Positions 6,759 to 62,731 of a stretch of DNA of 64,000 nucleotides are shown here, in pieces. The position numbers were made by a program, and so were the translations under genes. The DNA is from Candidatus Aminicenantes bacterium (GTDB lineage Bacteria > Acidobacteriota > Aminicenantia > Aminicenantales > JAFGBC01). Location: positions 2,208,001 to 2,272,000 of the forward strand of contig OY969696.1 in assembly GCA_963702005.1 (NCBI GenBank). The letters run 5' to 3'. Numbering within the stretch: position 1 is the stretch's first letter; every line of letters starts with the position of its first letter. The notes under the pieces are model-generated. The model did not search any database and had not been told where the DNA came from. It was given only the letters and a program-made list of their open reading frames with translations.

Positions 6759-8537
6759 TTAGGACCGTCCTCGCCGAAAGCGATGAAACGAGGAAGCGGA
6801 TTGGGGTGAGTGAGGGGTCTCGAACCCCCAACCTTTGTCTTTTCTGCTCCCCGGACGGGTGCCGGGGCCGAGAATGGGCCGGCCCGGGCGCGCGTCCGTG
6901 ATCTTTCCTCCGTCGACGACCAGCTCTCCGTTGACCGCTACATATTCGAAGCCCTGGCTATAGTGGTTAGGGTCGGCATAGGTTGAGCGCTCCTGAACCG
7001 TGTCGGGGTCAAAAGCTACGATGTCCGCCGCCATCCCCGGCCGCAGCAGGCCTCGGTCGCGAAGACGCATCCGAGAGGCTGGCAACGAAGTCATCTTGCG
7101 GACCGCCTCTTCGAGCGGGATCAGCTTGACCTCGCGCACGTAGTGGCCAAGGATGCGGGCGGTCGTCGCCCAGGCCCTCGGATGTGATTTCTCGCGGGAA
7201 AAAATTCCGTCCTCGGCCGAAGTCTCCGAGTCGGTGCACATGGAAACCAGCGGATGCCTGAGCGCCGCTCGCACGTCCTCCTCGCTCATTCCGAAGGTCA
7301 CGCGCATCGTGTTCCCGCGGTCGGCGAGCACGATGTCCATGACGGTGTCGAGAGGATCCTTACCTTCGTCCCGCGCGATCTCGGCGATCGTCTGGCCCTC
7401 ATATTTCTTGAGGTCAAGATTGAGGACGCTCGTGATGAGAATACGCGAGGCGCCCTCGGGCCAGTCGGGATTTTCCGCCAGGAATTCGCGTTTGGCACGG
7501 CCGCGCGTCGTCGGGTCGCGGAGTCGTGCCAGGAGCTGCTCGAGGCTCCCTTCCTGAAGCCATGAGGGTAGACTGTCCACGAGTCCATTCGAACTCGCCG
7601 TCCACGGATATTGGTCGGCGGAGACATCCAGGCCCTGCGCCCGCGCCTCCTCCAGCCTCCTGAGGACGGCAGGCATGAGGCCCCAGTTTTCCTTTCCGGA
7701 CGTTTTGAGGTGGTAGATCTCCGCTGGAATCGCCGCTTCACGTGCGATGCGGAACACCTCATCCAGGCTGGCGTCGATGCCGCCATTATTGTCGTTACCC
7801 TCGTCCCGCTGGTGTGTGATGTAGCTTCCACCGTAGGAAGCGGCGATGCGGGCGAGGGCGATGATCTCATCCGTCGAGGCGTAGCGGTCGGGCACGTAAA
7901 TGAGCGCAGTCGACAGCCCCAGGGCCCCTTCTTCCATGGCCCGGGCCACGGCCGCCTTCATGATCTCGAGCTCCTCCGGCCGGGCACGGCGGTTTTCTTT
8001 GCCGATGACGAGATTGCGGATGCCGCCGGCGCCCACAAATGTCCCCAAATTGACGGCGGACCGTGCCCGCATGAACGCTTCCCAGTAGCCGGCAAGCGTC
8101 GTCCAATCGGGAGTCAGCCCGTACCGGCTCCAGACATCCCGCCCTTCTTCGATCATCCGTTGGTTCAGCGGGCCGATCGACGAACCCTCGCCCGTGATCT
8201 CGGTCGTGATGCCCTGGGTGATCTTGCTCGCGACGCGATTATCGACAAGGATCCTGTATTCGGACTGCCCCATCATGTCAATGAATCCGGGGGCGATGAC
8301 GAGGTGCGAGGCGTCGATCCGGCGCCTGGCAGTGGCCTTGGCGAGATTCCCGATAGCGGCGATCCGGTCACCGACGACGCCGACGTCGGCCCGGAACCAG
8401 GGCGCGCCGGTCCCGTCGACCACGCGGCCGCCCGCGAAAATCAGATCATAGACGGGTCCCTGGCCAAGACAAAGGCCCGCCGTGAGAATGAGCCCGATGA
8501 CCGTTCCGCTAAAGATTCTTATTTTGGCAGCGCCCAA
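6759..8537 (-). CDS. N-acyl-D-amino-acid deacylase (amidohydrolase family)
   Basis: 'YDLIFAGGRVVDGTG', 'APGFIDM', 'GLSTALIYVP', 'SHPRAW', 'GMAADIVAFD'. TTG start at 8537 after a GAGGAGG SD; signal peptide present. Confidence 0.9.
   Translation of the reverse strand: MGAAKIRIFSGTVIGLILTAGLCLGQGPVYDLIFAGGRVVDGTGAPWFRADVGVVGDRIAAIGNLAKATARRRIDASHLVIAPGFIDMMGQSEYRILVDNRVASKITQGITTEITGEGSSIGPLNQRMIEEGRDVWSRYGLTPDWTTLAGYWEAFMRARSAVNLGTFVGAGGIRNLVIGKENRRARPEELEIMKAAVARAMEEGALGLSTALIYVPDRYASTDEIIALARIAASYGGSYITHQRDEGNDNNGGIDASLDEVFRIAREAAIPAEIYHLKTSGKENWGLMPAVLRRLEEARAQGLDVSADQYPWTASSNGLVDSLPSWLQEGSLEQLLARLRDPTTRGRAKREFLAENPDWPEGASRILITSVLNLDLKKYEGQTIAEIARDEGKDPLDTVMDIVLADRGNTMRVTFGMSEEDVRAALRHPLVSMCTDSETSAEDGIFSREKSHPRAWATTARILGHYVREVKLIPLEEAVRKMTSLPASRMRLRDRGLLRPGMAADIVAFDPDTVQERSTYADPNHYSQGFEYVAVNGELVVDGGKITDARPGRPILGPGTRPGSRKDKGWGFETPHSPQSASSFHRFRRGRS
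6802..6835 (-). repeat. att-like 34-bp direct repeat of the tRNA-His 3' end
   Basis: tggggtgagtgaggggtctcgaacccccaacctt is identical to 16851-16884. Confidence 0.9.
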
Positions 8538-8896
8538 TTCGCCCTCCTCTTCGGCACATCCAATGCCTGGGAATAACCCAGCCTCTTTCTCTAACCGGCA
8601 ACCTGCGGGTTTGGGTCGGGGTTCTCCTGATCCCACGCCGCTGAACCTGCGCCGCAGAAAGTATAGGTGCCGGCCTGGAGCGATGTCAACTTGACCTGCC
8701 TTTATAAGATTGGGCCGGATATGGAAGTGGTATAGAGCAAGAAATTCGGAACTTAGACCCATCCTTAAATCGGCCCCGATGCCTCGCTAGGTACTGCCCA
8801 TTGGTGGAGGGGCACTCAGGTCCCCTTCAGCCCGGCCAGCCACATCCTGGCATCTTCAGGCTCTGCCGTTTATCGAATGGGATTTCGTTTTGCCCT

Positions 8897-9211
8897 CTAG
8901 TGAGTTGAGCGCTCGACAATCGCTTCCACTACCTCCATTATGACGAGGAGGACGGCAATAAACCCAAAGACCACGGCCAATATCACGACGGGTGAGCGGT
9001 CCTTGAACTTAATTAAGCTTACGATCCCGGTAACGAAAGCGGCAATTCCGGATATCATCATGGATGTTCCCAGCATAATAAGGAGGGGGCTCCCGATTTT
9101 CATTCCTTTCAATCCCAATAAATTCCTCCTGTTAAGAACCGCAATAAGAAGCGCAACGAACACGGCCATCAATATGCCGGCCCATTTTCCGAGTTTTGTT
9201 TTCGGCATCAT
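8897..9211 (-). CDS. Small 3-TM membrane protein
   Basis: MMPKTKLGKWAGILM...; hydrophobic helices; own promoter TTGACT-17-TATCCT at 9270-9242. Confidence 0.7.
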   Translation of the reverse strand: MMPKTKLGKWAGILMAVFVALLIAVLNRRNLLGLKGMKIGSPLLIMLGTSMMISGIAAFVTGIVSLIKFKDRSPVVILAVVFGFIAVLLVIMEVVEAIVERSTH

Positions 9212-9397
9212 TTTCCCCTTTCCCCTTTGTTTGCTGGTCAAAGGATAACGCCGTCGGGAAGGGAAGTCAATTAGTGGTGGCCTGTATGCTCAACGAGGCA
9301 TCACGCATACGAAGGCAGTCGGTCAGCACGGCACAATCAGCTGGGGGATGATGGGTCTGGCCTGCATAGGGGGCTTTCGGGGCTGCTGGACGCGGGC

Positions 9398-9522
9398 AGA
9401 CTCCGCCGCCGTGTCACACCGTTGTCACAAAAAGTGCTAAAACTCGTCTACTTCGGACTAAAGGTGCTTAAAAGGAAAACTTAGGAAACCTTAGATTATC
9501 AGGGAAAACGAGGGGATTAAGC
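9398..9522. repeat. Putative integrase arm region, copy 1
   Basis: AGACTCCGCC...TGTCACA-ccgt-TGTCACA (9412-9429); homologous to 11781-11905 and abuts a tRNA fragment. Confidence 0.65.
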
Positions 9523-9565
9523 TGGCTGGGAAGCAAGGATTCGAACCTCCGACCTTTGGATCCGG
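9523..9565 (-). repeat. Chimeric tRNA 3' fragment (Arg-CCG-like anticodon/T-arm 5' side plus Gln-like T-arm 3' side and acceptor, CCA)
   Basis: Minus strand reads CCGGATCCAAAGGTCGGAGGTTCGAATCCTTGCTTCCCAGCCA; 9536-9565 is identical to 10130-10159. Confidence 0.75.
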
Positions 9566-9587
9566 GAGGGAGGCCGACGACCTATCC

Positions 9588-10043
9588 CTATTTCAGGATG
9601 TCCTCTTCCCCTCTCTGTGCCTTTGCCAATTGCAGGTACTTCTTCGCCGATATGATTGCCAGAATTGCGGCGATCAGGTTCGCTCCAATACAGACCAGCA
9701 TCAAGATCGCCTCTGCGCGGAATCCTTCATAGAACTGCAGAGAATAGACGGCAAGTTGGAACACCATGAAGTCATGTAGAAATAAGAGGAGCGCCCCAAG
9801 ATAAAGGGGGCCGCTGAGCATTCTGACGCCGCGCCGGCTCAGAATGACAACGGCCAGCAAAACAACGACCGCAACCAATTGGATTGCAAAAAATATCTTG
9901 GAAGAAGAATCGACGCGGTCGGCAATCGCCTCAGGATGCGCGGCCAGTCGAGGCACGAACAAGAGAGCCCACAAAGCGGCCACTCCGATTGCGATTGCGG
10001 TTGCGGTATAGACCATGCGCCGCGAAGTGGTTTCTTTGTCCAT
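9588..10043 (-). CDS. Hypothetical 4-TM membrane protein
   Basis: GGAGG SD, about 151 aa, four hydrophobic segments. Confidence 0.7.
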   Translation of the reverse strand: MDKETTSRRMVYTATAIAIGVAALWALLFVPRLAAHPEAIADRVDSSSKIFFAIQLVAVVVLLAVVILSRRGVRMLSGPLYLGALLLFLHDFMVFQLAVYSLQFYEGFRAEAILMLVCIGANLIAAILAIISAKKYLQLAKAQRGEEDILK

Positions 10044-10116
10044 CACAGATACCTCCTTCCAATGCTGATCACTAGTTTATATCAGAATGCTTGACAACAA
10101 AATAGGGGGGGGGATG

Positions 10117-10162
10117 TGGCGTGCCTGAGAGGATTCGAACCTCCGACCTTTGGATCCGGAGG
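10117..10162 (-). repeat. 3' half of a tRNA-Arg(CCG)-like gene (att-like fragment)
   Basis: Minus strand reads CCTCCGGATCCAAAGGTCGGAGGTTCGAATCCTCTCAGGCACGCCA: anticodon loop CT-CCG-GA, T-arm and CCA. No 5' half is present. Confidence 0.8.
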
Positions 10163-10204
10163 CTCCCGGTGCTCTGGCACGAACGGGGATCCGGGCCCGG
10201 GCAT

Positions 10205-10483
10205 TCAGTTTGTCGGCTTGGTGTCCGGCAGGTCCTTGCCCGCTTTCTTCATGTATCTCCGGCCTTCCTCGTAGATGTCAAAATCCTCTTTCCTGTCCAG
10301 GCGCACCTTTTTCCTCTGTCCATCGTCGGTCTGGAAAATTACAAGATATGCGTGCTTGGAGAGAGTGCAGGTCTTCTTGGCCTCGACGGTCCCCGACCAT
10401 TCCTTGCGGCGATCCCTTTTTCTCCTAACCCAGGGTAAGAAAACGAGCCCGTCACCCAGGAGTTCAAGTATGAAATCAATCAT
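10205..10483 (-). CDS. Small hypothetical protein (DUF2500/OB-like, basic)
   Basis: 92-aa ORF with an AGAAGGAGG SD; family assignment is tentative. Confidence 0.6.
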   Translation of the reverse strand: MIDFILELLGDGLVFLPWVRRKRDRRKEWSGTVEAKKTCTLSKHAYLVIFQTDDGQRKKVRLDRKEDFDIYEEGRRYMKKAGKDLPDTKPTN

Positions 10484-10560
10484 TTCGAACCCTCCTTCTC
10501 ATCCGCCCCTCACCAGTCTCGGGGCAGGGTCTCCGCCCGCCGGACCTACCTTCCCGTTGC

Positions 10561-11385
10561 TTATTTTAGCGTCAGCCCGATCCTCTTTTTATCTTTCGCC
10601 CAATAAATATAGAGCGCTTTGCCTTTTACATTGGCGAGAGGGAGAGTTCCCCAGTAGCGGCTGTCGTAGCTATTGTCGCGATTATCTCCGAGAACGAAAC
10701 AATGGCCAGCGGGCATCTTAAGCGGGCCGAAGTTGTCCCGGCTGTTGTCTATGACGATATCCTCGTGGACCTTGTATGATTCCTGGAGGGGTTCGTTACC
10801 GATAAAGACTTGCTTATTTTTTATTTCGACCGTTTCGCCTTCAAGAGCGATGACACGCATGAGAAATTGCTTTGTGGGATCTCGAGGATACTCGAAAACG
10901 ACTAAATCCCCCCGCTTAGGCGCCTGGTCGCTAAAGCCTTTTGGGTCCGTCATCAAGAAATCGTCTTTTTGAAGAGTCGGCATCATGGAGGCCGAAGGAA
11001 ACTTGTACGGTGAGACGCCTAGAGACGTCATCCAAATCCTTGCCGGAACGAAAATCTTCAAGCCGAGTGAAAGAATGATAAAGAACGCATAGACGAGAGG
11101 CGTTTGATATTTCCTAAGCCCCGTCTCCTTGGTCCGGCGCGCCTGGACAAAAGCGTGGATGATAGTGAACAACCAGAAAACAAAGACGGCTAGGACGAGC
11201 GCCATGAACCCGCTAAAATGGCGCGGCCAGCCGGCCAATCCCCAAAGAAAAGGTAGGGCGACAGAGAAGACAAAGAATATAATTCCAAGGACACCTTTCC
11301 CGTTATAGATCTGTCCGAGACCAGGAACGAGCAAAGACAGAAGGGCGGCGATGAACGGATTCCTTTTTTTCTTTTCGGCGGTCAT
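10561..11385 (-). CDS. lepB: Signal peptidase I paralog with extra N-terminal TM domain
   Basis: 'PSASMMPTL', 'FVLGDNRDNSYDSRYWG'; N-terminal 'LSLLVPGLGQIYNG' membrane domain. Confidence 0.85.
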   Translation of the reverse strand: MTAEKKKRNPFIAALLSLLVPGLGQIYNGKGVLGIIFFVFSVALPFLWGLAGWPRHFSGFMALVLAVFVFWLFTIIHAFVQARRTKETGLRKYQTPLVYAFFIILSLGLKIFVPARIWMTSLGVSPYKFPSASMMPTLQKDDFLMTDPKGFSDQAPKRGDLVVFEYPRDPTKQFLMRVIALEGETVEIKNKQVFIGNEPLQESYKVHEDIVIDNSRDNFGPLKMPAGHCFVLGDNRDNSYDSRYWGTLPLANVKGKALYIYWAKDKKRIGLTLK

Positions 11386-11638
11386 GATTCCCTCCCTACG
11401 TTCGTTGATTTCTTGGTTTCTTTTCCCCCCGGGGACCCGCGAGCCCAGCTCATCGCAGCGTTCTCTATATCGCGCAGAAAGGAAAAGAAATTGACCTCTG
11501 GCACGGGATGGCTTTCCCTCCCATTAAGCCCGGGACCCCTCTCCCTCGGTACGAAAAGATGATATTCCCAAGCTTGATTCTATGTCAAGGACCAGTATGG
11601 AGAACGACTGAGTTATCATAAGTTCGGGGCCTTAAGAT

Positions 11639-11782
11639 TGACCTGCCACCCCTTAAACCGATCCAGGCATAATGAGAAAAACCTGGGAGAAAGGAGCCTT
11701 AATGGGCAGGGTATGGTTCACTCCGGAACAAATCATTGAAAAGCTCCGTGAGGCCGAAGTCCTCAGATCTATCGAAATCTAG
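11639..11782 (+). mobile_element. IS3-family left-end remnant with truncated orfA
   Basis: TG-starting terminus TGACCTGCCACCCC..., SD AAAGGAG, and ORF 11702-11782 MGRVWFTPEQIIEKLREAEVL, typical of IS3/IS407 OrfA. Confidence 0.7.
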
Positions 11783-11905
11783 ACTCCGCCCCATGTCACA
11801 AATATGTCACAGATTGTGCCTAAACTCGCTTAACTTAGCCTAACGGAACCTAAATAGGAAAAAGCCTAACTTTCTTATTCACCAGGGGAAAACAGGGAGA
11901 ACAGG
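11781..11905. repeat. Putative integrase arm region, copy 2
   Basis: AGACTCCGCC...TGTCACA-aata-TGTCACA (11794-11811); same spacing to the tRNA CCA as copy 1 (94 vs 93 nt). Confidence 0.65.
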
Positions 11906-11954
11906 TGGGGTGAGTGAGGGGTCTCGAACCCCCAACCTTCGGATCCACAGTCCG
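11906..11954 (-). repeat. att-like 49-bp direct repeat of the tRNA-His 3' half
   Basis: Identical to 16851-16899, including the anticodon arm. Confidence 0.9.
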
Positions 11955-12456
11955 GGAAGTGCGCGCCCCATTCGGTTTTCAATCGACCGTGAACAAAAGG
12001 CTTCCCAGCCGGACGGGATCCTTCTCGTGCATCGCGGCACGCCGGTTGGATCTATTAAGTTATGATAAGGCTGGGAAAAGGAGGCAAGCCGTGAAGCGGA
12101 AAGGCGTCGTCTTCCTAGCTTCCTTCGATTTGTTGTTCATAGTGCTGAGTGTCTTGCTCTACGGGTCTTTCGCTCCCGCCGATCAAGTCGGCTCGCTGCT
12201 GGTAACAAACAACAGCGACCTGGTCAACAGGGATACGTCCAGCCCGGACACGCTGGTCGCCAACCCGGGGCCCGACGGCATCTCACTCCGGGAGGACATG
12301 CTCGCGGCCGCGGGCGCTACGACATCCCTCGCAATTAGCTTCACCCCGTCTTTGAGGGTGGACTGACCCCCAAAAATTGAACCACCCCGAGTGCTAAATA
12401 TTAGGATGCTATAATAGACATCATCAGCCGGGAGAAGGCCTTTAAAGGAGGCTCTG

Positions 12457-12768
12457 ATGGTGTCCGAGAAACACGGCAAACGGTACACGGCGCGGTTCAA
12501 GTTCCAGGTGGTGATGGAAATCTTAAGCGGGGCCAAGGCCATCGGACAGATCGCGCGGTCCTATGGCGTTCATCCGGTGACTCTCAGCCATTGGAAGAAA
12601 GAGTTCATCGAAAAAGGGCCGGAGATCTTCTCCCAGCACACCACGATCCAGGAGTACGAGAAACGGATCGAGGACTTGGAACGGTTAATCGGCCATAAAG
12701 AAGTGGAGATCGCGCTCCTAAAAAATTTCATGGCCGGGAGCTCACCCCGGGGGAAAAAGTTGAGCTGA
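12457..12768 (+). CDS. IS3 transposase OrfA (HTH)
   Basis: 'KRYTARFKFQVVMEIL...IARSYGVHPVTLSHWKK' plus a leucine-zipper region. Confidence 0.9.
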   Translation: MVSEKHGKRYTARFKFQVVMEILSGAKAIGQIARSYGVHPVTLSHWKKEFIEKGPEIFSQHTTIQEYEKRIEDLERLIGHKEVEIALLKNFMAGSSPRGKKLS

Positions 12769-13637
12769 CGCGGGCGTTTAAGGACGACTATGGGCTGAAC
12801 AGAGTCTTGGCGGCTCTGGGGCTTTCGAAAGGGACTTGGCATTATGCCCAGACGAGACCGAGTTATGAAGAGAAGCATGTCGGGCTGAGGAAACCGTTGC
12901 TCGAGATTGCCAGAACCCATCCGGAATACGGATACCGGAGGACGAGTGCCGAGCTCCGGGATCGAGGAATCCAGGTCAATCGGAAAGTCGTGGCGCGTCT
13001 GCATGGGACCTGGGATTTAGCCGTGATTCGACGGGTGAGGAAGCCGAAAACAAGCTCCCTGGCAAAGCTTCTTAAAGACACCGGGTCTAAGATCAATCTC
13101 GTGGCCGGCCTGACCGAGATCGATGATTTTGAGGTCGTCTATACGGATTTTACGGAGCTGCTCTACCGGAGAGGCCGGGCGAAAGCCCAGCTGATGCCGT
13201 TCGTGGATCATTCGAGCAAACTCGTTTTAGGCCACGCCCTGGGAGAGGCGGATAATACGGAGTTGGCCCTGGACGCCTGGCGCAAGGCGAAGACGACGCT
13301 CCGAAGATACGGACGGACAACGGAAGGGCTGATCGTTCATCATGATCAGGATGGTGTTTATTTAGGCCATGGCTGGCTCCGTGAGCTTGCCGTCCAGGAT
13401 AAAGTGCGCGTTTCCTATTCGGAAAACGGGGCCAAGGGCAACGTCCACATGGAGTCGTTCAATTCCCGATTCAAAGCCGAGAATCGGCTGTTGTTTTGGG
13501 AACAGGAAGATCTCCCTTCATTGAAAAAGGTTGTCGGGCAGCGGATCCGGTACTATAATCACGTTCGTCGACACTCGGCGTTGGGTTACCAATCGCCGAT
13601 TCGATATCTCAAAGAAAAGGGCCGAAGACCCGGCTGA
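12765..13637 (+). CDS. IS3 transposase OrfB (DDE/rve), likely reached by -1 frameshift
   Basis: 'YGYRR', 'TDFT', 'HHDQDG', 'MESFNSRFKAE', 'YYNHVRRHSALGYQSP'; A-run slippery candidates near 12720 and 12754. Start approximate. Confidence 0.9.
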   Translation: MTRAFKDDYGLNRVLAALGLSKGTWHYAQTRPSYEEKHVGLRKPLLEIARTHPEYGYRRTSAELRDRGIQVNRKVVARLHGTWDLAVIRRVRKPKTSSLAKLLKDTGSKINLVAGLTEIDDFEVVYTDFTELLYRRGRAKAQLMPFVDHSSKLVLGHALGEADNTELALDAWRKAKTTLRRYGRTTEGLIVHHDQDGVYLGHGWLRELAVQDKVRVSYSENGAKGNVHMESFNSRFKAENRLLFWEQEDLPSLKKVVGQRIRYYNHVRRHSALGYQSPIRYLKEKGRRPG

Positions 13638-13904
13638 GATGTTAGCGGAATTTAGCCCTCTAAGTGGTTCGAAAAATGGGGGTCATGTCCGGGCCCCAAG
13701 ATCTCAATCTCAGATAGGCTGCCGCGCATCACGGGGGGCAGCTTGAAGATCACGGGCGACATTAACGCCGACGGCACGTCGGACATCTCGCTCGACGGCG
13801 GGAAGAAAGCCGCGGAAGCGAATTCTAAGGATCTTTCAGAATCCAAACATCTCCCACTATCACCAACATGTCGCAAATTCGGTTGAAAAGCGCGTAAACT
13901 ACGT

Positions 13905-14030
13905 CATTGAAATCGATGCCTCTTTCGACGAGTTGGGCTGCAAACGTGTGCCGTAGGTCATGAAATCGAAGGCCCCTGATCCCAGCTCTACGTGTGGTTG
14001 CGTTGAAAGCCGTCTTGACATCAAGGGGCC
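13905..14030 (-). pseudogene. Tyrosine recombinase/integrase fragment
   Basis: Reads '[38 protein letters not shown]' (H-x-x-R box). The N-terminus and catalytic Tyr region are missing. Confidence 0.8.
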
Positions 14031-14043
14031 GCGGTTCTATCCT
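14015..14043 (+). promoter_or_regulatory. Sigma70-type promoter for the kinase gene
   Basis: TTGACA-17 bp-TATCCT. Confidence 0.55.
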
Positions 14044-14071
14044 CTGGGCAGACAAGGACTGGGATGGGCGC

Positions 14072-16750
14072 ATGATCGGCCAGCTCGTTTCCCACTACCG
14101 GATCCTGGAGAAGCTCGGCGGCGGAGGCATGGGCGTCGTCTACAAGGCCGAAGACACCAGGCTCAAGCGCGCGGTCGCCCTGAAGTTCCTGCCCGAGGAG
14201 TCGCTCCAAGAGCCGCACGCCCTGGAGCGCTTCGAGCGGGAGGCCCAGGCCGCATCGGCCCTGAACCACCCGGGGATCTGCACCATTTTCGATATCGACC
14301 AACACCAGGGACGCCATTTCATCGCCATGGAGCTACTCGAGGGCCGGACCCTGAAGCGGCGCATCCTCGGCCAGCCGGTCCCGGCCGACGAGATCATCAA
14401 TCTAGCTATCCAGATCGCCGACGCCCTCGACGCCGCCCACGGCAAGGGCATCATCCATCGGGACATCAAGCCGGACAACATCTTCGTCACCGATCGCGGC
14501 CTAGCCAAGATCCTCGATTTCGGCCTGGCCAAAACGATGCCGCGAGAAACGGCTGCCGCGGGCTCGGCCGGCCCGACCGTCACCGCCCCGGAGCCGCTGA
14601 CCGGAGCCGGCGCGGCGGTCGGGACGGTGGCTTATATGTCCCCGGAGCAGGCCCGGGGCGAGCCGCTTGATGCCCGCACCGATCTTTTTTCCTTAGGCGT
14701 CGTGCTCTACGAAATGGCGACAGGTCGGCAGGCCTTTACTGGCTCCACCTCGGCCGTCATCTTCGACGCCATCCTTCATAAAGCCCCGACATCTCCCGTC
14801 CGGCTGAACCCGGATGTCCCGCCCGAGCTGGAGCGGATCATCAACAAGGCCCTGGAGAAAGAACGGCGGTTGCGCTACCAGAGCGCGGCCGAGATCCGGG
14901 CCGATCTCGAGCGGCTGAAACGGGATTCCACCTCGGCGCGCATAGCCGCCTTTGAAGACCAAGCGGCGCCATCGGCAGGCCCCATCGCCTCGGGGCGTAA
15001 GAGACGCCGATGGATCCCTTGGGCCGCGGGGGCAGTCGCCGTGCTCGTCTTAGCCGCGGCCGGCATGCTTCTCCTAATGGGGCATAAAAAGCCCTCCGAA
15101 ACAGCCGTTCCCCAAGTGGCCAACGCTGTCAAAGTGACCACCGCCATGGGTGCCAAGGACTGCCCAAGCTGGTCTCCGGACGGCCGCATGCTGGTCTACC
15201 AGTCCGACCAAGCAGGGAACTGGGACATCTGGGTCACCCAGGTCGGGACGAGCCAGGCCGTCAACCGGACGGCCGACAGCCCGGCCAACGAGATGAATCC
15301 CACCTGGTCGCCGGATGGTCAGTGGATCGCCTTCTTTTCGGACCGGACCGAACGCGGCTACTACGTCATGCCCGGGATCGGCGGCAAGGCCCATCGGATC
15401 GCCTCTTTGGAGTTTGCCGATGCCTATCCGACGGCGGCCCAATGGTCTCCGGACAGTACTCATCTGGCCTATGCCCTGCGCCAGCGCGTCGAACCCTACA
15501 TCGAGATCCTGACCGTGGCCAGTGGCCAATCCAAGAGGCTGACGCTTCCGAACCGGGCCCGCAACAATTCCATCATCGACATGAGCTGGTCGCCCGACGG
15601 GCGCTGGCTCGCCTATGCCCGGGCCATTAGCCCCATCGCAGCGACCGCCGAACTGTGGCTGACGCACACGACCGACGAGAAGAGCTTCCAGCTGACCGAC
15701 GGGACCTTGAGGGATACCAGCCCGACCTGGTCTCCGGACGGCCGCGAGCTCTATTTCATCTCCAATCGCGGCGGGACGCCTGACCTCTGGCGGTTCGCGA
15801 TTGGCGGCCAGGGACTGCCGGAGGGGCCGCCGCGGCAGATCACGGCCGGCATCGAGATGACCCATGCCGTCATAGCCCCGGGCGGACGGACGTTGGCCTA
15901 TTCCAAAGGCCGGACGGTCCGCAACGCGTTCCGGGCCCCCCTCCCGGCGGGCCGGCCGATCACCTGGACGGACGCCACCCAGCTGACCTTCGACGAAGCG
16001 GAGATCGAGTCCGTCGAAGTCTCAAAGGACGGACGGATCCTGGTCAGCTCGGACAGATCGGGAAACTGGGACATCTACCTGCTGTCCCCGGACTCGGGCG
16101 ATCTGCAACAACTGACGACCGATCCGGGAGTGGATGCGGGCCCGCGCTGGAAGCCCGACGGCAGCGAGATCGCGTTCTACTCGTCGAGAACGGGCCATCG
16201 GGAAATATGGCTCATGCCCGTGGGCGGCGGCCCGGCGCGGCAACTCACCCACGGCGAGGTCGAGAGTTTCAACCCGGCTTGGTCCCCCGACGGGAAGTCC
16301 ATCACCATGGAGAGCGGGGGCATTTTGATCCTCGACCCTCAAAGCCTCAAGGTGAGGAACTTAACCGACAAAGAAACCAATTGCCACCCGGACTGGTCCC
16401 CTGACGGGCGCTGGGTGGCCTTCAGTGAAAAGGGCAACCAAGGGTGGCAGATTTTTCGCATCGCAGCCTCCGGTGGGCTGGTCGAGCAGCTGACACGAGG
16501 AGGAGGCTGGACGCCCCGTTGGTCCCCCGACGGGAAGCGGATCTACATGATCGGCACCGGAAGCCGGAGGAATGCCATCTGGGCCCTATCACTCGAGAGC
16601 CGGGAGGAATGGCCGGTGACAGCATTGACCGGCCGGCGCGGCGCGCTGGGATATAACGGCCTAGCCGTCGACGGCCGGTTCCTCTATTTCACCTGGGAAG
16701 AGGTGCGCAGCGACATCTGGGTCGCCGATATCGTCCGGCCGGTGAAGTGA
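14072..16750 (+). CDS. Hanks-type Ser/Thr protein kinase with TM helix and TolB-like (PD40) beta-propeller
   Basis: [30 protein letters not shown]; many WSPDG repeats; ATG at 14072 (MIGQLVSHY). Confidence 0.95.
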
Positions 16751-16850
16751 CCGCCTGTCCGTTTTTCTTAACAAGAGTTCAATTAATCCAAAATGATTTG
16801 TATAAGGAGATTCTCTTATCAGGCTAACTGATTGAATATTGAGGGAACAG

Positions 16851-16928
16851 TGGGGTGAGTGAGGGGTCTCGAACCCCCAACCTTCGGATCCACAGTCCGA
16901 TGCTCTAACCAATTGAGCTACACTCACC
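16851..16928 (-). tRNA. tRNA-His(GTG)
   Basis: GGTGAGTGTAGCTCAATTGGTTAGAGCATCGGACTGTGGATCCGAAGGTTGGGGGTTCGAGACCCCTCACTCACCCCA; G-1:C73, GTG anticodon, encoded CCA; upstream TTGACA-17-GAAAAT. Confidence 0.97.
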
Positions 16929-17074: not shown

Positions 17075-17989
17075 CTATCGTTTCTGGCCCTCGATGAGGT
17101 CGAGGACGTCGGCCGAATCGCGCCAGCGGGGCCGGACCTTGACCTGGAGGTCGAGATAGATCCGGGTCTTGAGGATGTCCTCGATCTCCCGGCGGGCCTC
17201 GCTCCCGATCGCTTTGAGAAGCTGGGCGTGGCGGCCGATGACGATTTTGCGTTGGGAGTCCTTTTCGACGAGGATGCTTGCTTGGAGGTAGATGACGGGC
17301 GGGCGGGGGGCTTGTCCTTCCGGCGTCTCGGCGCTGCGTTCCTCGATCTGCTCGAGGAGGACGGCCGTCACGAAAGGCAGCTCCTGTTCGACGCGCGCGA
17401 GGAGTTTCTCGCGGATGATTTCGGCCAAGAAGAACCGTTGAGACTGGTCTGTGATCTCGTCGGCTGCATAAAGCCGGTCCGCTTCGGGGAGAGCGTGGTA
17501 GAGGCAGTCCTCGAGCCGGTCGAGGTTGATCCCCTTGAGGGCCGAGATGGGGATGATCTCCTTGAAGGCCAGGAGGTCCTTGTAGCGGTCGATGAGGGGG
17601 AGGAGCTTGTCTTTCCGGATCAGGTCGACCTTGTTGAGGAGGAGGAATAGGGGCTTGGAGACGTCCTTGAGGATCTCCAGGGCGTAGGCGTCCCCGTGGC
17701 CGAAAGGCTGGGCGGCGTCGACGAGAAGGCAGACCAGGTCCGCCGTCTGGAGGGAGGTGAAGACAAAGTTCATCATCCGGCGGTTGAGGCCGTGCAGGGG
17801 TTTGTGGATGCCGGGGTTGTCGATGAAGACGATCTGTCCCCGGTCGCCGGTCTTGATGCCCAGGATGCTGATGCGGGTCGTCTGGGGTTTATCCGAGACG
17901 ATGGCGACCTTGCGGCCCAGGATCCGGTTGAGGAGGGTCGACTTTCCCGCGTTGGGCCGGCCGACCAGGGCGACGGTCCCCGAGTTCAT
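17075..17989 (-). CDS. era: GTPase Era
   Basis: GRPNAGKST, PQTTR, DNPG, NKVD and a KH domain. Confidence 0.95.
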   Translation of the reverse strand: MNSGTVALVGRPNAGKSTLLNRILGRKVAIVSDKPQTTRISILGIKTGDRGQIVFIDNPGIHKPLHGLNRRMMNFVFTSLQTADLVCLLVDAAQPFGHGDAYALEILKDVSKPLFLLLNKVDLIRKDKLLPLIDRYKDLLAFKEIIPISALKGINLDRLEDCLYHALPEADRLYAADEITDQSQRFFLAEIIREKLLARVEQELPFVTAVLLEQIEERSAETPEGQAPRPPVIYLQASILVEKDSQRKIVIGRHAQLLKAIGSEARREIEDILKTRIYLDLQVKVRPRWRDSADVLDLIEGQKR

Positions 17990-62653: not shown

Positions 62654-62731
62654 AGCCCTGTAGCTCAGTTTGGATAGAGCAAGGGATTCCTAATCCCTGT
62701 GTCGCCGGTTCGAGTCCGGCCAGGGCTACCA
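62654..62731 (+). tRNA. tRNA-Arg(CCT)
   Basis: AGCCCTG/CAGGGCT acceptor stem, anticodon loop TT-CCT-AA, GGTTCGAGTCC, encoded CCA. Confidence 0.95.

Follow-up and report, generated by a model that had tools for sequence, protein, structure and literature searches.

Tandem accretion as the probable origin of a row of small, integrase-less units bordered by tRNA fragments behind tRNA-His in an Aminicenantes bacterium

The gene for tRNA-His in a Candidatus Aminicenantes bacterium is followed by an array of small gene units whose borders consist of displaced tRNA 3' ends, and the make-up and probable origin of this array are described here. It lies within a 64,000-nt stretch of DNA (the window; assembly GCA_963702005.1, contig OY969696.1, positions 2,208,001 to 2,272,000). 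The genome of the window (G000) is a single contig of 4.3 Mb, and its 52 predicted tRNAs were used as BLAST queries. The intact tRNA-His(GTG) anchors the array and has the gene of the Era GTPase upstream of it, a pairing shared by a second genome of the same genus (G001) and by five that are more distant. A search for repeats and a BLAST comparison with the tRNAs of the genome itself located four tRNA 3' fragments (F1 to F4) downstream of the tRNA-His 3' end and on the minus strand like tRNA-His itself, at the places and in the orientation that an earlier reading of the sequence alone (the sequence-only reading) had given them. They subdivide ~10 kb behind tRNA-His into at least five units of 0.6-5 kb (Table 1). 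A second tRNA of the window, Arg(CCT), was found at 62654-62731.

F4 and F1 are exact copies of tRNA-His 3' parts, and together with them tRNA-His presents the configuration by which islands are recognised, namely a full tDNA accompanied, on the correct side and in matching orientation, by a cognate end fragment. The flank to the left of F1 is core-like, with 70-83% identity in G001 and in a further genome (G002). F3 is 92% identical over 39 nt to the tRNA-Arg(CCG) of its own genome and identical at 43/43 positions to the genuine tRNA-Arg(CCG) of a genome from another family (G113). F2 is a chimera: its segment 9536-9565 equals F3 (30/30), while 9523-9548 equals the 3' end of the genome's own tRNA-Gln(CTG) (26/26), and the Arg and Gln parts overlap in the T loop, within GGTTCGAATCCT. 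An identical chimera occurs in G001. These similarities are not due to chance, because the BLAST E-values of the fragments range from 1e-8 to 1e-25. Misassembly at short repeats, for which no supporting point was found, is barely credible as well: the repeats measure just 30-50 nt in a single-contig genome, the order from F4 to F2 was reproduced in the independent G001 assembly, and metagenome contigs bridge the membrane gene and F3, the 92-aa gene and the peptidase gene, and the IS remnant, arm and F4.

Directly behind F4 and F2 (in the tRNA sense) lies a conserved arm of ~75 nt with two TGTKACA repeats and the consensus TTTAAGCACCATTAG..AGGCGAGTTT..TGTKACA-N4-GTKACAYGG..GTCTG. The sequence-only reading had overlooked these arms, as well as a degenerate arm, an element of the IS3 family of insertion sequences (IS) and a truncated IS end. 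A profile search returned 8 arm copies in G000, each of which lies behind, and points the same way as, a tRNA (Glu twice, Arg-TCG, Asp) or a tRNA 3' fragment. Among the genomes of the order that were at least 90% complete, a sequence-only covariance model found the arm in 69/129 genomes and 33/52 genera, with 1-16 copies each. In a species collection, the exact arm pattern matched 32 loci, 19 of which were labelled as metagenome-assembled genomes of Aminicenantes, Acidobacteria or Acidobacteriota and 13 of which carried other labels. More than half of the arms at these loci (22 of 41) directly follow a full tRNA, with nine isoacceptor types represented; most of the remaining arms come after tRNA 3' fragments of 10-50 nt, and a few have no such piece before them. 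A stricter version of the pattern, applied to five genomes, gave four matches in two of them and was too strict for use. The DNA beyond the arm is unrelated from locus to locus.

Three other identities of the arm were considered and ruled out. An RNA was dismissed on the absence of a fold and of covariation, the arm alignment having a consensus fold of -2.4 kcal/mol and 0 covarying pairs. A transposon end was dismissed on the absence of inverted copies in G000, and an antisense coding tail of an integrase gene on the finding that no long open reading frame (ORF) ends in the arm (the longest antisense ORF has 149 aa); in G113, the antisense reading of the arm resembles an integrase tail. A further explanation, that the arm is a regulatory or processing signal of the host behind tRNA genes, and that the array has nothing to do with it, would account for its position 25-55 nt behind many tRNAs, always co-oriented, and for the combination of tRNA-Asp and arm in at least ten genomes. 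It is very unlikely, however, given that the presence of the arm behind tRNA-His varies within one genus, that the arm travels with tRNA fragments to non-tRNA sites, that it has no conserved fold, that it can also stand, inverted, at the opposite side of a core, and that integrase 3' ends are enriched in its repeat motif. Because the arm follows tRNA-His in G019 and is absent behind tRNA-His in G013, a genome of the same genus, it appears to belong to the inserted DNA. It probably acts as a DNA site, neither RNA nor gene, and would constitute an attachment (att) arm used throughout the lineage.

In bacteriophage lambda, attP and attL are built of a core and of arms with direct repeats for the arm-binding domain of the integrase, and the excisionase gene lies beside the integrase gene. 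The borders in the array fit att sites of this type, with tRNA-derived cores and arms that carry putative integrase-binding repeats, and the likeness would extend to the gene order in G113. There, an arm is followed by an HTH_17-like, excisionase-like ORF (E 0.0016, below cut-off) and then by a 361-aa tyrosine integrase (PF00589 3.5e-35), whose 3' end contains GGTCACAATTTGGTCACA and lies 14 nt short of the genuine tRNA-Arg(CCG). A GKNACA-N4-6-GKNACA repeat was found at the integrase 3' end in 7 of the 30 loci of the order that were listed, against ~0.05 expected from the G000 background (0.0016 per 390 nt). In G057, a complete genome, a core is flanked on both sides by the arm in inverted orientation, resulting in an attP-like site of ~295 bp. 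Inverted arms, with the cores outside, enclose two units of this genome, which hold one to several genes and no integrase between the arms. Unlike those of lambda, the G057 arms are near-symmetric inverted copies, and integrase binding to them is putative.

Table 1. Features of the tRNA-His array and its anchor (window coordinates) and attP-like sites of a relative (locus coordinates).
Feature	Position	Strand	Evidence
Intact tRNA-His(GTG), anchor of the array	16851-16927	minus	ARAGORN
Era GTPase gene, upstream of tRNA-His	17075-17989		Pfam
F4, displaced tRNA-His 3' part (positions 29-77, anticodon stem to 3' end)	11906-11954	minus	49/49 identical
F3, foreign tRNA-Arg(CCG) 3' half, CCA encoded	10116-10165	minus	identities to own gene and G113 (see text)
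F2, chimeric core: Arg-type 5' part and tRNA-Gln(CTG) 3' end	9523-9565	minus	BLAST against own tRNAs
F1, outermost tRNA-His 3' part (positions 44-77), distal array border	6802-6835	minus	34/34 identical
Conserved arm (P'-type) behind F4, TGTGACA-N4-TGTGACA	11780-11854	minus	nhmmer E 2e-17; covariance model E 2.4e-18
Conserved arm behind F2	9397-9472	minus	nhmmer E 6e-19; covariance model E 7e-18
Degenerate arm, fused directly to integrase remnant	13813-13909	minus	74% over 97 nt to His-type arm at genome 1793969-1794065
Tyrosine-integrase remnant, ~42 codons incl. HDLRHT box, both ends truncated	13905-14030	minus	PF00589 E 2.8e-8 on ORF 13825-14073
Unit 1: 918-aa Ser/Thr kinase with PD40 beta-propeller repeats, antisense to tRNA	13994-16750	plus	Pkinase 3.8e-46, PD40 4.3e-68 (Pfam)
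Unit 2: IS3-family element (OrfA 12457-12768, OrfB 12807-13637)	12457-13637	plus	HTH_Tnp_1, rve, rve_3
IS3-family left-end remnant with first ~26 transposase codons, abutting arm	about 11620-11780	plus	read from sequence
Unit 3: signal peptidase I, 274 aa	10561-11385	minus	Peptidase_S26 5.7e-39; TIGR02227 129 bits (cut-off 47)
Unit 3: 92-aa protein, directly upstream (tRNA sense) of Arg-type core	10205-10483	minus	95% identical to genome 3704-4020
Unit 4: 152-aa hydrophobic protein, sole gene between F3 and F2	9588-10046	minus	
Unit 5: 114-aa hydrophobic protein, promoter-like site 9270-9242	8897-9241	minus	
Unit 5: amidohydrolase (D-aminoacylase-like)	6759-8762	minus	Amidohydro_3 E 4e-23
attP-like sites in L116 (G057:C1:2160000-2179000)	7737-8031, 15105-15402		antisense tRNA-Arg(CCT) 3' part between inverted arms

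As to the cargo, the gene content that had been read from the sequence was recovered for the amidohydrolase with its membrane protein, the single membrane protein, the 92-aa protein with the signal peptidase, and the kinase, whereas a proposed CSLREA-like fragment was not: ORF 11914-12366 had no match in Pfam, NCBIfam or PHROGs. The 92-aa, 152-aa and 114-aa proteins had no family match in PHROGs or NCBIfam, and no integration or transfer genes were found with Pfam among the larger ORFs of the array. Several units had been credited with promoters of their own, and promoter-like sites, which are consensus matches only, are indeed more frequent in the array (8) than in shuffled sequences (2.3 ± 1.5) and precede the peptidase, 114-aa and amidohydrolase genes. 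The kinase of unit 1 found only matches of 66-68% in G001. Ser/Thr kinases with repeat domains (TPR or PD40) recur beside arms at L033, L046 and L116 (two genes), accounting for 4 of 29 cargo ORFs of other genomes (Pfam), and the kinase of the window is a fifth case.

Only a short integrase remnant had been reported for the array, and a scan of the whole genome with PF00589 agreed with this: of its 12 matches, the sole one inside 6.8-16.9 kb was the remnant. A search for the integrase from which it might stem, as suggested by the same reading, led to own-genome relatives that were at best 40-44% identical. The degenerate arm fused to this remnant is best taken as a former, fifth and eroded unit border with a deleted tRNA core, because the core expected between arm and integrase remnant is missing. 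Two insertion sequences add to the picture, the IS3-family element inside unit 2 and the IS left end that abuts the arm behind F4; the inverted repeat of the latter I take to be of the IS407 type, and related pieces were found at five other sites of the genome. At the distal border, comparison of 3' ends revealed that the amidohydrolase has lost its native stop, its frame now crossing F1 (6759-6835) into the core flank and gaining ~25 codons.

Such traces of loss could mean that one or two large, integrase-bearing islands at tRNA-His were whittled down by deletions and insertion sequences, the inner tRNA fragments being passengers, and that nothing has moved since. The integrase remnant, the IS3 element, the IS remnant and the lost stop at the F1 junction all speak for decay of this kind, as do a dip in GC content (0.50-0.56 over 8.5-14 kb, against 0.62-0.66 in the surroundings) and the eroded tRNA pieces that precede arms in other genomes. 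As a full account it is nevertheless unlikely, since the same small units exist elsewhere as small units, a 2.4-kb block of the array lies at another tRNA locus of the congener with its edges on cores, and the distributions and identities of the units differ across families.

The 2.4-kb block was found in G001, where the DNA behind tRNA-His is unrelated to the window. Window positions 9523-11954 aligned to contig C192 of that genome with 2351 of 2435 columns identical (96.6%), and this copy sits in an array upstream of tRNA-Leu(CAA). Both end cores are 100% identical, the arm beyond F2 is 79% identical, and outside F4 there is only noise. Compared with the 81-88% identity of the core DNA of the two genomes, the 96.6% of the block is suggestive of a transfer of 9523-11954 between genomes. 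A second case concerns the unit between F3 and F2. In G113, a tRNA-Arg(CCG), a homologue of the 152-aa gene as the only gene and a 43-nt tRNA-end repeat fit within 1.1 kb, so relatives do carry the genes in small units and not, as would befit mere decay in terms of the sequence-only reading, in large intact islands. Because G113 holds the same arrangement at a genuine tRNA-Arg(CCG) that is identical to F3, the segment of F3, membrane-protein gene and F2 appears to have been copied from a mini-island whose proper place is tRNA-Arg(CCG) in another Aminicenantes family.

Some unit of the array was matched in 64/246 genomes of the order, and the units are distributed separately. The amidohydrolase gene has 84-90% nucleotide identity in eight genomes of one family (f4), where the Era protein is only ~65% identical, and its neighbours in these genomes differ from those in the window. 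The 92-aa gene is widespread (81-92% identity) and adjoins an Arg core in 5/6 other loci examined; it is paired with the peptidase gene in G126, G028 and G011, and with the membrane gene in G239 and at 3.6-4.6 kb of its own genome. Unit content and order differ between genomes, as had been anticipated for a comparison of relatives. Short metagenome contigs from four runs covered the array unevenly: the amidohydrolase was seen mainly in X1 and X2, the insertion sequence in X3 and X5, and the kinase propeller almost nowhere. Gaps in contigs this short are uninformative, and none of the sequencing runs contained more than 0.24 of the sampled words. One contig of run X2 joins 10528 to 9625 (90 nt on the shorter side), which corresponds to an alternative order of the 92-aa and membrane genes. 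Two other joints, from 9270 to 10116 (30-31 nt) and from 9446 to 16851 (23 nt), have short sides and are weak.

When all tRNAs of G000 were searched against the genome by BLAST, ~30 tRNA pieces were found outside tRNA genes. The parent genes tRNA-His and tRNA-Gln(CTG) were identified in this way and so were further arrays, both of which the sequence-only reading had suggested looking for, and because further clusters of tRNA pieces lie across the genome, the tRNA-His array is one of several. Two Arg(ACG) ends lie behind an integrase at 2.73 Mb. A single-protein query with this integrase found no close relative in the species collection, and an order-wide search found a relative in 91/201 genomes. 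G000 also encodes two serine recombinases, at 1.51 and 1.54 Mb, neither of them near an array. A 560-aa ORF behind tRNA-Glu was considered as a recombinase and rejected, as it is present in a single copy and belongs to no family.

Several of these loci deserve a description in their own right. At tRNA-Val(CAC) (genome 89457-177200), an integrase reads into the tRNA 3' end, and a long island is succeeded by three units of 2-5 kb; the four tRNA-Val ends at 167-177 kb are each preceded by a conserved stretch of ~50 nt. Locus L005 (genome 2796-4576) has three Arg(CCG)-type cores at a non-tRNA site, which enclose a 92-aa gene (95% identical to the window copy) and a membrane-protein gene (71%), and the final one of these cores shares sequence with the end of a C45-type acyltransferase-like ORF. 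Six copies were found of the tRNA-Arg(TCG) 5' half (positions 1-41), at genome 1792570, 2367913, 3081669, 3146361, 3150276 and 3153648, and behind four of them comes a second conserved arm type with GGTATAC repeats and GTCACAATTTGGTCACA. One of the six is located 1.8 kb upstream of the genuine tRNA-Arg(TCG), which suggests that some elements may use the 5' side of a tRNA for insertion and bring its 5' half along. Back-to-back cores of two tRNAs are possible as well: at L051 (4133-4434) and L044, a tRNA-Arg(ACG) gene lies within ~50 nt after the arm behind tRNA-Asp, and at 2367836-2367952 of G000 an Arg(TCG) 5' half lies 35 nt beyond an Asp 3' fragment. Two tRNAs predicted by ARAGORN are probably not genes: 'tRNA-Leu(TAA)' at 3143121-3143209 (89 nt, anticodon position 38) consists of a Leu 3' fragment joined to an arm end, and 'tRNA-Glu' at 1792026-1792093 (68 nt) is a 5'-truncated copy.

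Comparison with known systems placed the array closest to two of them. Cis-mobilisable elements (CIMEs), according to the account in PMC5704250, have kept their att sites and lost their integration genes, and their accretion in tandem with integrative and conjugative elements (ICEs) or integrative and mobilisable elements (IMEs) is known. Both CIMEs and such accretion were first described for ICESt1-type elements of Streptococcus thermophilus. The array is like CIMEs in having, by Pfam, no integration or transfer genes; cores lie at its unit borders, and P'-type arms behind F4 and F2, as candidate att sites. It differs in the number and size of its units, in its cores from three tRNAs plus a chimera, in an arm that is conserved on only one side in the window, and in the absence of a functional partner element from the array; movement is presumed from comparison. 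The ssrA islands of Dehalococcoides are presented in PMC3146451 as small and arranged in tandem behind a single small-RNA gene, with niche cargo and with a direct repeat of the gene's 3' end closing each island; 15 of them have no integration module and are suggested there to be CIMEs. In that description they are served by a CcrB-like serine recombinase and a single 20-bp repeat of one gene, whereas the Aminicenantes family targets many tRNAs and has lambda-like arms, and the recombinase seen once is a tyrosine integrase.

The general layout of the borders has precedents, too. As set out for Islander and TIGER in PMC4383910, island ends consist of a regenerated tRNA and a co-oriented displaced fragment, and classes of crossover that fall in the anticodon loop or in the T-stem region are already known, as are 5'-fragment cases. 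By the same account, Islander rejects candidates that have no integrase or are shorter than 2 kb, and 4 tandems of three or more were present among 3919 islands (PMC4383910). The units of the array, with an integrase remnant in place of an integrase gene, fall outside these filters. A limited search by title and abstract turned up no publication on tRNA-linked integration arrays of Aminicenantes, which does not show that nothing is in print.

The sequence-only reading had gone further and proposed an integron-like family, and this part found no support. Integrons are indeed called to mind by the way in which small units, most with a single gene, line up in order next to a fixed site and are shared among genomes. 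However, no integrase gene adjoins the array in the PF00589 scan (no IntI-specific model was run) and no attI was found; 0/23 inverted-repeat pairs lay at unit borders, and the arm has no conserved fold that would make an attC-type hairpin. Integron cassettes are promoterless and are read from a common Pc promoter; the units carry promoter-like sites, again as consensus matches, which would set them apart. Their borders are tRNA cores with arm repeats that look like lambda-type att sites. What stood of the proposal is its description: tRNA-derived sites form the unit borders, and the units are small, integrase-less and bordered by sites of different tRNAs mixed at one locus.

In my view, the array probably arose by tandem accretion of at least five small lambda-type integrative modules, which would now be integrase-less, CIME-like mini-islands that are movable only in trans. 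It matches the CIME and accretion pattern and that of the Dehalococcoides ssrA islands at a smaller scale and with many tRNAs, and so looks like a miniature form of known genomic-island stacking and not like a new integron. An incoming element would bring a copy of the tRNA 3' part as its core, with a P' arm of about 75-130 nt behind it, in which two TGTKACA repeats ~11 bp apart are putative arm-type integrase-binding sites. Each insertion would restore the tRNA and shift the older modules (core plus arm) outward. The integrase genes would have been lost afterwards, save for the 42-codon remnant, leaving modules that are non-autonomous like CIMEs and could move only through a related integrase acting in trans or by riding with a neighbour. 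The F2 chimera would be the trace of a single crossover in the T loop that the Arg-type and Gln-type cores have in common, and the simpler cause of the mixed tRNA types at the locus may be the import of the Arg(CCG) mini-island plus this one crossover.

A number of observations weigh against this account. Integrases were hardly ever found near arms: tblastn with 11 G000 integrase ORFs over 49 arm loci gave one 29-aa match (E 0.005), 0/29 cargo ORFs beside arms were integrases by Pfam, and among the 30 integrase loci listed there was only 1 weak arm match. The arm and integrase in G113 are flanked by unlike cores (an Arg-TCG fragment on the left, tRNA-Arg-CCG on the right) and do not make a textbook element. 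Likewise, the block relocated in G001 is bounded by a His core and an Arg/Gln core, which a single integrase working on matching sites would not yield, and since similarity after the arm breaks right at its end, recombination at that point is also conceivable. Finally, the units of the window have no P arm, P'-type arms being present only behind F4 and F2.

The same material can be read in a more dynamic way, in which integrase-less core-plus-arm units are the normal propagating form and are actively shuffled as cassettes by a few trans-acting recombinases. Extended to the lineage, this would mean that Aminicenantes at large harbour non-autonomous cassettes, each a tRNA-half core with a ~75-nt arm on one or both sides, that hop between unlike tRNA sites by means of a few integrases in trans. 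The conserved tRNA sequence could let a unit enter any tRNA-derived site, and the F2 chimera shows crossing-over of unlike cores. Arrays of 3-7 arms with one to few genes each and no integrase occur in L039, L045 and the G057 region, and the G057 units keep both att ends with inverted arms, yet have no integrase between them. The identity of arm cores reaches 96% even across family boundaries, alien cores occur in arrays (His in a tRNA-Glu array, Glu at 3143320, Asp in a tRNA-Lys array), and units have their own promoter-like sites. Still, cassette shuffling is rather doubtful as the mechanism at this locus, and its extension to the lineage is no less so, although the near-absence of integrases by arms, the unlike flanking cores and the sharp break at the distal arm end, which sit awkwardly with accretion, keep this view alive. 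No candidate for a dedicated recombinase was found, and the fragments before arms vary from 0 to about 50 nt, which is more like erosion than precise cutting. The missing P arms in the window count against it as well, and the G113 arm beside an excisionase-like ORF and an integrase means that autonomous parents exist. The sole back-joint in metagenome contigs (10528-9625) also exists in linear form at 3.6-4.6 kb of the genome and is not a demonstrated circle.

On the preferred account of accretion by small modules, rows of mini-islands are common in this uncultured lineage and carry kinases, secreted enzymes and defence-type genes as cargo. Finders that demand an integrase and a length of at least 2 kb, as described in PMC4383910, leave such integrase-less rows uncounted, and the conserved arm offers a simple marker for locating them. 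The T-loop chimera is a concrete lead on the way in which a single recombinase might use unlike tRNA sites. If units are indeed moved in trans, this would allow cheap shuffling of single genes among tRNA loci and genomes, and should the cassette view prove true after all, Aminicenantes would possess a functional analogue of the integron that has tRNA att sites as its building blocks and is scattered across many tRNA loci.

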